A DNA stretch of 64,000 bases from Escherichia coli (GTDB lineage Bacteria > Pseudomonadota > Gammaproteobacteria > Enterobacterales > Enterobacteriaceae): the NCBI RefSeq assembly GCF_009931435.1, contig NZ_CP043414.1; one strand, given 5' to 3'. Of the stretch, positions 9,001-15,000 are shown piece by piece (position 1 is the first letter of the stretch; each line of letters starts with the position of its first letter). The position numbers were made by a program.

Positions 9001-12000
9001 ACGTTTTTGGGTCAACCAGACGTTGCCAGCTGTAGACAAAATCCTGTGCCGTTACCGGTGTGCCATCCGCCCATTTTGCGTTATCGCGCAGGGTGAAAGT
9101 CCAGATACGGTTGTCATTACTTTTCCACTGAGTCGCAACGCCGGGGACAATCTCCCCTTTCTCGTTCTGATTCACCAGTCCTTCAAAAAGATCGCGAATG
9201 ACCTGAATCTCTGGCAGACCCACGGCTTTAGCGGGATCCAGCGACGCAGGCTCATCTTTAATATGGCGCACCAGCTCCTGCTTCTCTGCCAGTACTGTGC
9301 CGCTCGGAACTTCTGCAGCATACGAAAGAGAAATGCTGCTGACCAACAGCGCACAACACGTGACTGAAACAGAGTGCTTCATAAGTTACCCTCAAACCTG
9401 CGTTAATAATCATGCGTAATTATTTGTTTCGCCTTAAAGAAATGCAAACAACTTCCGGCAAAAAAGTGATACAAGATCGATAACATAGCGTTGAAGAAAA
9501 GGATTTGATAATCCGCAAAATTTGCACAACACTGCCTGTAATACTTCCTGAACCAGAGACGATCATGACCGTAACTCGCCCACGCGCCGAACGCGGCGCA
9601 TTTCCGCCCGGTACAGAACATTACGGACGTTCATTATTGGGCGCGCCTTTGATCTGGTTTCCGGCCCCAGCCGCCAGTCACGAAAGTGGTTTGATTCTGG
9701 CTGGCACCCACGGTGATGAAAACTCTTCGGTCGTGACCCTCTCCTGTGCTTTGCGGACATTGACACCTTCTTTGCGCCGCCATCATGTGGTGCTGTGTGT
9801 GAATCCTGACGGCTGCCAGTTAGGGTTACGGGCCAATGCTAATGGCGTGGATTTAAATAGAAACTTTCCGGCAGCAAACTGGAAGGAAGGTGAAACGGTT
9901 TATCGCTGGAACAGCGCCGCTGAAGAACGTGATGTCGTTTTACTGACAGGTGACAAACCTGGCTCCGAACCTGAAACTCAGGCGCTGTGCCAGCTTATAC
10001 ATCGCATTCAACCTGCCTGGGTGGTCTCATTCCACGATCCACTGGCCTGTATTGAAGACCCCAGACACAGCGAATTAGGTGAATGGCTGGCCCAGGCGTT
10101 TGAATTGCCACTGGTCACCAGCGTCGGTTATGAAACGCCTGGCTCTTTCGGCAGTTGGTGTGCGGATCTCAACCTGCATTGCATCACCGCAGAGTTTCCG
10201 CCCATCTCCTCCGACGAAGCCAGCGAAAAATACCTCTTTGCGATGGCTAACTTGCTGCGCTGGCATCCTAAAGATGCAATGCGCCCGTCGTGAATTGAAG
10301 CGCCGGTTCCACATCTACCGCCAGCCAGGTCGGTCCGTCAAGATCAGCAAAACTGACCTGCGGCACCAGCGGTAAAGCGGCGCTAATGGCACGAGAGGTA
10401 CACAACATGCAGCCCAGCATCAGACTGAAACCTTGTGCACGCGCTTCGGTCGCCAGCGCCAGCGCCTCCGTCAGGCCACCCGTTTTATCGAGCTTGATGT
10501 TAACCATCTCATAGCGCCCTTGCAGCGCCTTCAGATTGCTACGGGTATGACAACTTTCATCAGCACAAATCGGTAACGGATGAATAAAATTCTCCAGTGC
10601 CGCATCGTCCTGCGCAGGAAGCGGTTGTTCAAGCATCGCAACGCCTAAATCCGCGAGCAGTTGGCAACGCGCCGCCAACCCTTCTGCACGCCAGGATTCA
10701 TTTGCATCAACGATAAGCGTCGCGTCGGGCACAGCCGTGCGAATTGCTACCATCCGCTCACTGATAAGATGGTTATCCAGCTTCACTTTCAGCAATTTCG
10801 CGCCTGCCTGCCACAGTGTTGATGCACTATTGGCCATCTGATCAGGCGTACCGATGACTACCGTCTGGGCAGTGGTGACTGTCTCGGGAAGCGTTATGCC
10901 GATCAAATCAGCCAGCGATTGCTGCTGTTTTCGCGCCGCCAGATCCCACAATGCACAATCCAGCGCATTACGTGCTGCGCCGGCAGGGAGAATTTTTTGC
11001 AACTCCTCCCGTGTCAGCCCTTTCTCTAATTGCGGCACGACGCTCATAATTTGCGCCATTACCGAGGCATCACTTTCTCCATAACGCGGATACGGCGTGC
11101 ATTCACCGGTGCCTTTAATACCTTCTTCTTCCAGTTCAACCACCACCACGCGCGCTTCACTACGACTTCCCCGAGCAATCACAAACGGGGTATGTAAGGG
11201 CCAGGCTTCCTCAAATACCTTAACGGTTCTCATCTTTACTCCTTGTTGTCGCGGTGGTCTGCGGATTAAGCGCAAATAGCGTTTGCTGTGTTATTGACAG
11301 TTAGCATAAACTAGGTGTGACGTTAACTATATGTAAACAGGAAAGATAATCATGTCACAAACCGTTCATTTCCAGGGCAACCCGGTTACAGTCGCCAATT
11401 CCATCCCGCAGGCGGGTAGCAAAGCGCAGACTTTTACTCTCGTGGCAAAAGATCTGTCTGACGTCACCCTCGGTCAGTTTGCGGGTAAACGCAAAGTGCT
11501 GAACATTTTCCCGAGTATTGATACCGGTGTTTGCGCCGCATCAGTACGTAAGTTTAACCAACTGGCAACCGAGATCGACAACACCGTTGTGCTGTGTATC
11601 TCTGCCGATCTTCCGTTCGCCCAGTCTCGTTTCTGCGGCGCAGAAGGTCTGAACAACGTTATCACCCTCTCCACTTTCCGTAACGCTGAATTCCTGCAAG
11701 CCTACGGTGTGGCAATTGCTGATGGCCCACTGAAAGGTCTGGCAGCGCGTGCCGTTGTGGTTATTGATGAAAATGACAATGTGATTTTCAGCCAGCTGGT
11801 GGATGAAATCACCACCGAGCCGGATTACGAAGCAGCTCTGGCTGTACTGCGCTAAACAACTGTGCCGTTCACTGAATCACCACCGGTGAACGGCAGTTTT
11901 TGATCTACCAGTCCCACTATTTTCCAGAGTTCCTGCCACTATTCCCCCTAACCGTTGTGCATTAAGATTGCTCTTTGCCATTATTAGCCCAGCGGAGTGA

Positions 12001-15000
12001 TGACTATTATGGATGATAAACAAATTACGGTCTGGCTTAAACACAATTGCTGTTCAACGGACATTCCTGCCATTGCCGAGGCACTAACGAACCATGCAGA
12101 ATGGCTTTTAGAGCTAGCGCCAGATCCTATTGATCAAGGTAGTTCATGCTTACCGCCGGCAGCTGCAGCTGGTATTTTTCTTGGCGCAGCGGCGATGGTT
12201 CACTGCGGCGAGGCCAGTGGTGCAGAAACCTGGCTCGAAGCAGCCATTACTGATTACCATTTCTTTAATCCAAACGGATATAGTTCATGGAGAGGCAGTA
12301 CGCCTGTTTTTACAGCAATATCGCGTTACCCGGCATTAAAAATGGTGTTATTTAACGCCGCTTGCGCAATGGAAGACTGGAATAAAGCATCCGCTGTTCT
12401 TGAATCGCTTTTCAATGCCAGCGATGTCCCGAAAGATAACCCTGTCGCCCCCAATTTTACCCCTTATGCGCTGAAAGATATTATCGCGGATAACCTCCCG
12501 TTAGGGCCTGCTTATTATGATGAAACCTGGTTGCTGGCAAAACAAGCGTGGTTAATTAATGCGGGCGTTCTGGATGAGCGAACATGCAATACCTGGAAGC
12601 AATATACCCGCCATTTGCGCCATTTGATCCACAATGCACAGTTTTCCGATGCGATCTCTTTTGTACGCAGTAAAAAAGAACCATTAAATCATATCCATAC
12701 CTACTCAGACTTTTATCTCTATGCGATTGGTTTATTTTCTTCTACTGATCAGCTAAGTGAAGCGCTAACCTGGGTAAAACAATTAATCCGCAACAATGAT
12801 GGTCATTTCCATGATCTTTTCGTTTCAACTGGCGCAAAGCGCCGCATAAAGCCTGAACTTAGTACCTTGCTGAATAATCTCTTGCACAGCGCAGAGTTTC
12901 AGGCGTTGCAGGATAAATATCTCACCGTCGGACATGATGTTGTGCATTCTGGTCCCTTCATGTCACTTTATGAAAAGGTTCTTGGCGGTAAGTCCCGAAA
13001 GCGCTGCGCGATTAGTCGAAAATTAATCTCGCCCGGCGAAGCGGTTTATGAATATCGTCAGCTGGATAGTGTGGAATATATTGCAGCGAAAGCGGCCTTT
13101 CAGACATCTGAGCTAAATAATATCGCCCACCGGCATCATAATGATAGTTATCAGTGGCATGAATTTGCCGCCCAATGGCCTCGTCGGGGTTCACTTTCTC
13201 ACCCAGATATTGCCCGTTATTTGTTTGAGCGCCAGGAAGGAAAATGCTTTGATGCCGCAGAGTTTATACCACTGATTGCGGAACCGTTTGTCTTTCCGAT
13301 GCGTTTCATATGGGTTGCCGGGTTGTCCTTTGAATTACATCAGTATCCGGATGCCTATTTCGTAAATGACAATATGGCGGGTGAATTTGTTAATCTCTGC
13401 TGGATGGCTATGAAATGCGGACATGCTGGCGACATTTTCAAACAACTGGCCCACGAGCCGCATGACGTTGCTGACCCTATTTACGCCATGCTCGCCACGT
13501 TTGACCGCTCTGATTGCCGTAGCGCCGCCGCCGCGCACTTTGGACAACCGGAACTACCGGAAATAATGGCACTGGCTTTCAGTTCGAGGTTATCGCTCGA
13601 CAGCGTACTTACCATCGCTGAGTTTGGTAAAAATCAGCCGCGATTTTCACATGCGCTAGCAACGGCCCTCCTGCGTTACAACCTGCACATCTACTCAAAC
13701 TATATGCCGCAGGTTAACTGGTACCTTCAGGGGCTGGAACACTATGCTTTGGCAAAAGGCGGTCAACTTTTAAATTTCTTTGTGCATATTCCAGAACAAA
13801 TTCCCGTTCTGGCGACCATGCTGGAACATGGCGTATTAGTGCGTGGGATCGGTGAAGGTGCCTATGATGGTTATGATAATTCAGCAAATTCATTTCATCA
13901 TGCCGCCGTGATGCACTGCCTTGAGCACGCGCCGGAAAAAGTCCGCTACTGGATGGAAACACCCTGGATTCAGAACTATTTAGTGAATGCGCCGCTGCGT
14001 CAAACGGCGCGCCATGTGGAAGCCTGGCATAAAAAGTTTGGCATCAAATGAACGTTGCCGCTGCGCCTGAACGGCGCAGCCAGCACAATCACTCTTCGCT
14101 TTTCTTCTGGTTTAAGCCATATTCCCGCAACTTATTGGCAATCGCGGTATGCGAAACGCCGAGACGTTTTGCCAGTTTGCGCGTGCTGGGATAATTGCGA
14201 TAAAGCTGAGTTAATACCGAGCGTTCAAAACGGCTGGTAATTTCGTCCAGCGAACCTTCCATCGCATCTTCGCCCACGGCTACCGTTGCGGCGTCATAAT
14301 CCGGCAACAAAATATCCTGAGGACGCAGCTCATAGCCGTCCAGTTGTGTCAGTGCGCGATAGATAGCGTTCTTTAACTGCCGCACATTTCCCGGCCACGC
14401 ATAACGCGTAAGTACAGTATTCAGGTCAGCGGCCAGTTTCGGACGCGGCACGCCCTGCTCGTCGGCAAAGCGAGCGACGAACAGCTCAGTTAACGGCATG
14501 ATGTCCTGCGGACAGTCACGTAACGGCGGTAGATTGAGCGTCAACACGTTCAGACGATAATAGAGATCTTCACGGAAAACGCCTTTTTGCACCAGTTCGA
14601 CTAAATTCTTCTGCGTAGCGCAAATCACCCTTACATCGACATGCACTTCATGATCTTCACCAACTCGACGGAAAGTGCCATCATTAAGGAAACGCAGTAA
14701 TTTCGCCTGCATCCTTGGCGACATCTCGCCTATCTCATCTAACAGCACCGAACCACCGTTCGCCTGCTCAAAGAACCCTTTTTTACCTTCCGGAGCATGA
14801 CCAAACAGTTCACTCTCGACCGCATCTTCCGGTATAGACGCGCAGTTCAGCGCCAGGTAAGGTTTGCCCGCTCGTGGGCTTGCCTGATGGCAGGCGTAGG
14901 CAAAGAGATCTTTACCTGTACCGGTGTCACCCGTAATCAGCAACGGCGCGCTTAGCATCGCCAGTTTCTGCGCCTGTTCGACAACATGCTTCATTTTCGG

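Follow-up and report, generated by a model that had tools for sequence, protein, structure and literature searches.

A rare single-gene insertion between tpx and tyrR of Escherichia coli encodes an apparently undescribed protein, possibly an orphan immunity protein

Polyimmunity loci are co-oriented, strain-variable arrays of unrelated or paralogous immunity genes, in whose products the immunity domain is frequently joined to TPR or ankyrin repeats (PMC3482391; PMC3113570). Here we analyse a single gene that lies between the convergent genes tpx and tyrR in a 64,000-nucleotide stretch of the Escherichia coli contig NZ_CP043414.1 (assembly GCF_009931435.1), which we refer to as the window. The gene most likely encodes a protein of 680 amino acids (aa). 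Our tentative reading, to which we assign a probability of about 0.4, is that this is an orphan, non-enzymatic, cytoplasmic immunity-type binding protein of a new family. The gene context of its relatives is what suggests that a toxin would be bound and neutralised.

The relatives occupy about 22 distinct genomic contexts. When a subset of their neighbours was compared with Pfam and NCBIfam, about 7 of these contexts proved to be same-strand arrays with immunity families, a count that has no matched background rate beside it; as a rough assumption, an immunity-type neighbour would be expected beside a few percent of accessory genes taken at random. A TsiV gene lies near a relative in Salmonella, Tli4_C and ankyrin genes lie near a relative downstream of hrpA, and further members are accompanied by SUKH_6/SMI1_KNR4, DKNYY and DUF1203, by DKNYY and Tsi3, by DUF1963 in a Rhizobiales isolate and, on a Sinorhizobium plasmid, by SMI1/KNR4 and DUF1963 genes, two of each. 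On a metagenomic contig (L037), WapI comes after a protein longer than 1,519 aa that has no Pfam match, and the family member stands two genes past WapI.

The family occupies a different chromosomal site in each lineage: tpx–tyrR in E. coli, malM–ubiC (P0007), downstream of hrpA (P0005 and P0006), adjacent to yegQ in Salmonella (P0004) and beside ydcZ (P0008). We found no flanking sequence common to the different insertion sites and no neighbour family that recurs across sites beyond local synteny, which argues that there is no obligate partner. On an enterobacterial contig (L009), two genes without Pfam matches at 3305-5415, upstream of P0008 (5454-7484), proved to be one further copy of the family gene, broken by a frameshift. 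This copy is split at the beta subdomain described below and resembles the Salmonella protein P0003. At this single locus it stands in tandem with P0008 as a diverged paralogue, the two sharing 46% identity in the N-terminal half and 63% in the C-terminal half. Arrays with immunity families, seen here in about 7 of ~22 contexts, and tandem divergent paralogues are the defining traits of heterogeneous and homogeneous polyimmunity loci, and it is these two observations that point to a possible immunity function.

Three side observations concern the neighbours. An unannotated protein of ~380-390 aa recurs near family members (E = 1e-103), on the Sinorhizobium plasmid (L035:3301-4437) and on the WapI contig (L037:9642-10817), and is possibly a further component of these arrays that has gone undescribed. 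In Aliirhizobium terrae, the first open reading frame (ORF) called downstream of the family member, ~400 bp away, encodes 209 aa that include a peptidoglycan hydrolase domain of the glucosaminidase/FlgJ type (L031:10462-11091; NCBIfam E = 1.6e-8, with one Pfam Glucosaminidase match in its batch); domains of this type are used by some secreted antibacterial effectors. In the Salmonella yegQ island, the segment L002:13114-17878 on the minus strand carries, on the strand opposite to the family gene, genes for 239-aa, 703-aa DUF4034, 238-aa DUF1266 and 400-aa proteins together with IS1 fragments. The DUF4034 neighbour is similar in size to the family; it was considered as a paralogue and rejected as unrelated by profile comparison. 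Neither the 680-aa protein nor any of 53 relatives matched DUF4034 (PF13226); two relatives from AFDB are labelled DUF4034.

The 680-aa protein is mildly acidic (pI 6.1) and has neither a signal peptide nor a true membrane segment, its sole hydrophobic 19-residue window (residues 46-64) being a buried repeat helix in the predicted structure. It is soluble and rich in His, Cys and Trp, as a preliminary description of the locus had stated. The contents of these residues (His 5.1%, Cys 1.8%, Trp 2.5%) exceed what is usual when set against approximate averages of the E. coli proteome. The protein has no match in Pfam (E up to 10), NCBIfam, PADLOC-DB, PHROGs or the PDB sequences and thus to no described family, and, in agreement with the earlier statement, no catalytic motif was found in it; no housekeeping family came up in these searches.

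The AlphaFold model of the protein has a pLDDT of 90.4 and a pTM of 0.91. The N-terminal half contains a paired-helix repeat solenoid, and a profile search against the PDB matched TPR/PPR repeats in that half only. For the C-terminal domain, no convincing match to a solved structure was found. A beta subdomain of ~55 residues superposes on the zinc fingers of PARP-1 at 2.6-2.7 Å. Of the four zinc ligands, the first Cys (C333) alone is present and conserved, and sequence comparison lends no support to a zf-PARP assignment, as there is no Pfam match (PF00645) and the hhalign probability is ~0. Judged from the model, the subdomain appears to resemble a PARP-type finger in fold and not in family membership. 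In an alignment of 67 members, Gly, Pro, Leu, Phe and Trp account for most of the well-conserved positions. Conserved polar positions are few, with C333, R350, H560 and Y562 kept in 81-87% of members and Y557 in 97%, and a strictly conserved set of catalytic residues was not found in this alignment. Because the conserved positions are mostly structural and few are polar, a binding or scaffold protein would suit the sequence better than an enzyme.

A word-indexed search of 5.8 billion proteins returned eight clusters from E. coli, Salmonella and other assemblies, all full length and 49-90% identical to the protein, and an exhaustive HMMER search of 1.84 billion representatives returned 91 family members (representatives at 50% identity). 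In the latter search, the conserved core of the family is the C-terminal ~360 residues. Some relatives of ~500 aa have different N-termini, and two relatives have ankyrin repeats in place of the solenoid. When 53 relatives were scanned against Pfam, these ankyrin repeats in two members were the only matches at E <= 0.001; four marginal matches (E 0.04-0.08) were to unrelated families, and no informative domain fusion was found. Those relatives that have names are from Alphaproteobacteria (Aliirhizobium, Rhizobiales, Rhodobacterales, Reyranella and Sinorhizobium), and structure-based relatives come from Betaproteobacteria, Planctomycetota, Bacteroidota, Desulfovibrio, Listeria and spirochaetes. 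The family was found on 1 of 72,556 plasmids, and searches of 50,697 phage records and of 2.9 million viral contigs gave no member; a profile search with a narrower alignment gave 4 loci in genome contigs and 8 in metagenomes. Literature searches on the protein accessions, DUF4034 and tpx/tyrR hotspots returned nothing relevant. From these searches, the family appears to be small, spread over several phyla, previously undescribed and annotated as hypothetical.

Alignment of the window to two empty sites showed that ~2.24 kb stands where there had been ~47 bp of the ancestral tpx–tyrR junction, which bears out the insertion of ~2.2 kb first proposed. The empty-site references are a BL21 derivative and an O55:H7 strain, in which the gap between tpx and tyrR is 43 bp. 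Among complete E. coli genomes, the flanks were matched in 5,415 of 5,426, the whole insert in 30 and any part of it in 32 (~0.6%). The gene is thus far from universal in this interval, and its description as a lone accessory gene in a fixed core interval holds. All E. coli copies are chromosomal. Every carrier examined has the same site, the same shortened tpx and the same altered tyrR end, and this likeness indicates that the insertion in E. coli was a single ancestral event. In a spread sample, the genomes listed all contain the 680-aa gene or else the empty span of 1,214 bp, and they give no sign that the tpx–tyrR interval is a general integration hotspot. The carriers belong to a few E. 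coli lineages, and many are isolates from human stool and cattle.

The alleles form groups that are ~98% and ~94% identical to the window. Between groups, the dS of the gene (0.13-0.15) is similar to that of tyrR (0.13-0.20), which indicates that the gene has been at the locus for about as long as the lineages have diverged. Its dN/dS is 0.27-0.53 in the informative comparisons vs 0.01-0.08 for tyrR; taken separately, the N-terminal half has 0.32-0.46 and the C-terminal domain 0.20-0.33. The gene is therefore constrained by moderate purifying selection, far less than its neighbours. An intact frame of 680 codons is present in 22 of the 32 copies. The 10 disrupted copies comprise 6 that are annotated as two ORFs, one of which (L028) was examined and found to be split by a 1-nt frameshift, and 4 that carry a 1,267-bp IS600 insertion. 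Patchy spread, a separate site in each lineage, a dN/dS of 0.3-0.5 and disruption in roughly a third of carriers are together what a use-it-or-lose-it accessory immunity gene would be expected to show.

In the mechanism that we propose, the gene would be retained without a cognate toxin and would act as a standalone cytoplasmic binding protein. Competitor bacteria would inject a toxin into the cytoplasm by type VI secretion, by contact-dependent inhibition/Rhs or by a similar route, and the protein would neutralise the injected toxin through direct binding. The variable TPR-like repeats, replaced by ankyrin repeats in some relatives, may set the target specificity, and the conserved C-terminal domain may be the common binding or scaffold module. 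A related idea is that of the acquired interbacterial defence clusters in gut bacteria.

Several observations weigh against this proposal. With its 680 aa, the protein would be a large immunity protein, and neither it nor the 53 relatives matched any described Imm, SUKH or SuFu-type family in Pfam; other than ankyrin, no fusion to a known immunity domain was found. Direct pairing with a toxin was not seen in the ~22 contexts, no member being directly downstream of a recognisable toxin domain, and in the E. coli window both an immunity array and a toxin gene are absent beside the gene. In about 14 of the 22 contexts, among them the E. coli window and six further metagenomic loci, the gene is inserted singly between genes unrelated to it. 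DUF1963, which contributes to two of the array contexts, we presume to be immunity-associated; neither PMC3482391 nor PMC3113570 mentions it. Finally, flexible islands gather many kinds of orphan genes, and the co-location with immunity genes could be partly incidental.

The lone contexts, which lie among housekeeping or miscellaneous genes, are what would be expected if the protein had an accessory role in the cytoplasm that is unconnected with conflict between organisms, for example as an adaptor, a chaperone or a regulator that binds a host protein through its repeats, with the islands merely tolerating insertion. No partner gene recurs, TPR-like repeats are generic protein-binding modules, and purifying selection shows that there is some function and not which one. 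We nevertheless regard this alternative as doubtful, as seven independent immunity-type contexts and the tandem paralogues are hard to put down to chance, and so patchy a spread with such frequent inactivation would be unusual for an adaptor of housekeeping type.

We consider it unlikely that the protein is a new single-gene immune sensor, in which diverging repeats would recognise an invader (phage, plasmid or injected toxin) and the C-terminal domain would act as effector or neutraliser, possibly through the conserved Cys, His and Tyr residues. More unlikely still is a single-gene anti-phage or anti-plasmid defence system, with variable repeats that sense an invader protein and a C-terminal domain that is a new kind of effector. 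A variable repeat region joined to a conserved domain, lone insertion, patchiness, frequent loss and tandem paralogues would all fit immune sensors too, a single metagenomic relative has an AbiEii toxin gene in its vicinity, and PADLOC-DB dates from 2023, so that newer systems would escape it. Yet no family in PADLOC-DB 2.0 matched at E up to 1, the domain searches gave neither an NTPase, nuclease, TIR or SIR2 domain nor a membrane effector domain, and strictly conserved catalytic residues are lacking. The interval is no general hotspot in the genomes listed in the spread sample, the family has no relatives in phages or viral contigs, and tpx and tyrR flank the gene in the window with no known defence gene adjoining. 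The recognised conflict neighbours are immunity genes and not defence systems, as seen in the neighbour subset compared with Pfam and NCBIfam (none was compared with PADLOC). The phage-defence or stress role suggested in the preliminary description is not borne out by these results; interbacterial immunity, a related conflict function, would fit better, going by the context in about one third of the contexts.

Least probable is that the gene is a functionless, decaying remnant in E. coli, acquired once by illegitimate recombination and drifting to loss, as its rarity (0.6%), the frameshift or IS600 insertion in 10 of 32 carriers and a constraint far weaker than that of the flanking genes (omega 0.3-0.5 vs 0.01-0.1) would suggest, for omega is clearly below 1 in both halves across a dS of 0.13-0.15, most copies are intact despite a core-like age, and the family is kept across phyla with a well-folded predicted structure.

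The features of the locus are collected in Table 1. Between the convergent tpx and tyrR, a single long ORF extends from 11997 to 14051 on the plus strand. The preliminary description had taken this ORF, from 11997 or 12000, as a 684-aa gene; the ORF itself stands, and its start needs revision. In each of the eight close homologues, as in the RefSeq annotation of this gene in strain 2017-02-2CC, the protein begins at the residue encoded at 12009, which makes the ATG at that position the probable start. The GGAG motif could not serve the codons at 11997 or 12000, as it is too near to them. A promoter scan found no sigma-70-like promoter between the tpx terminator and the start codon.

Table 1. 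Features of the tpx–tyrR interval in the window (positions in the window)
Feature	Position	Strand	Evidence or remark
tpx (thiol peroxidase, 167 aa)	11352..11855	+	ends VLR*; 504-nt form common to all carriers
Inserted/replacing segment, ~2.24 kb	11850..14090	.	alignments to empty sites; lower GC
Hairpin with 12-bp stem (11863-11895) and U-run	11863..11903	+	-20.6 kcal/mol, z = -4.2
GGAG, possible ribosome-binding site	11994..11997	+	11 nt upstream of ATG 12009
Gene for 680-aa cytoplasmic protein, apparently undescribed family	12009..14051 (including stop)	+	most likely extent; homologue starts, dN/dS, AlphaFold model
N-terminal half, aa 1 to ~305, TPR/PPR-like helical repeats	12009..12923	+	more variable half
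Three-stranded beta subdomain, aa ~311-365, conserved motif LGGKxRKRCxxSxxLIxPGE	12939..13103	+	
C-terminal helical domain, aa 366-680, family signature e.g. RYNLHxYSNY	13104..14048	+	conserved
GC-rich 8-bp hairpin in the gap between new gene and tyrR	14060..14080	.	-19.7 kcal/mol (+), -22.9 kcal/mol (-); z = -3.6 on +, -3.2 on -
tyrR, 513 aa	14089..15630	-	stop TGA; residue 511 S or G in carriers

The insertion altered both flanking genes at their ends. The last two codons of tpx changed, so that its C-terminal end VLKA* became VLR*, and the terminator hairpin that tpx and tyrR share at the empty site is gone in the window. The tyrR stop codon is TGA in place of the TAA of the empty sites, and residue 511, two codons ahead of the stop, is usually N in tyrR. 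The hairpins that the preliminary description placed on both sides of the ORF are present, and both fold better than shuffled sequences. The left hairpin with its U-run is probably a replacement intrinsic terminator for tpx. The right hairpin has no clear U-run and is probably a terminator for one or both of the convergent genes, the new gene and tyrR. An Rfam scan of positions 9000-17000 gave no match. The GC content is ~0.42-0.51 in the insert vs ~0.51-0.56 in the flanking genes.

A mobile element of transposon or IS type was considered and ruled out, since there is no target duplication, no transposase and no flank common to the insertion sites: alignment to the empty sites revealed no target-site duplication at either junction, and the single ORF of the insert has no transposase features. 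The sole end-to-end repeat of the insert is a 12-nt imperfect inverted repeat at 11860-11871 and 14068-14079 (CTGTGCCGTTCA / TGAACGGCGCAG), with one arm in each hairpin. It is probably due to chance, because repeats of such length are numerous in the region and a target duplication is lacking; alternatively, it may have been left by the event that brought in the segment.

Two further observations concern the flanking genes. A mechanical ORF list (14089-15657) gives tyrR 522 aa from a TTG codon; the annotated start is MRLEVFCE, giving 513 aa. On E. coli plasmids, 38 places match the query, and the one listed (NZ_AP045062.1, 57153-57401) corresponds to part of tpx (query 302-550) at ~93% identity. 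It is annotated as thiol peroxidase, so that some E. coli plasmids bear a diverged copy of tpx.

If the protein does confer immunity, it would represent a new and unusually large toxin-neutralising family with a C-terminal fold unlike any solved structure, and its target would point to a toxin that the carrier strains meet in the gut. Whatever the function, the locus offers a presence/absence polymorphism of one gene, with clean boundaries, at a core site that is otherwise fixed, and its intact and naturally disrupted alleles make it experimentally easy to test. About 90 sequence clusters from several bacterial phyla gain a name and a structural model. The gene is also one among many uncharacterised accessory genes of E. 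coli, with a function argued here from gene context.

We finally compare the family with described systems. Like the Avs/AVAST-type anti-phage sensors, it joins a variable repeat region to a conserved domain and is an accessory, patchily distributed lone gene; unlike them, it has no STAND NTPase, recognisable effector domain, PADLOC match or defence-island context. The PARP-type zinc finger (zf-PARP, Zn1/Zn2 of PARP-1) differs from the beta subdomain in that three of the four CCHC ligands are missing in the family, which shows no sign of binding DNA nicks. From TPR/PPR-type proteins, the family is set apart by the lack of a Pfam TPR/PPR model match, by repeats that make up half of the protein only, and by the unrelated C-terminal domain that defines it.

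The closest likeness is to the orphan immunity genes and polyimmunity loci described by Zhang et al. 2012 (PMC3482391). There are differences, as the family matches no described Imm family and is far larger than typical immunity proteins, the gene stands alone and not in an array in E. coli and most other contexts, and no cognate toxin was found for any member. The apparent likenesses are same-strand arrays that some relatives form with TsiV, Tli4_C, Tsi3, SUKH/SMI1_KNR4, WapI, DKNYY and ankyrin genes, tandem divergent paralogues, strain-variable patchiness without a cognate toxin nearby, and a family-specific domain, free of any catalytic signature, that is fused to TPR or ankyrin repeats.

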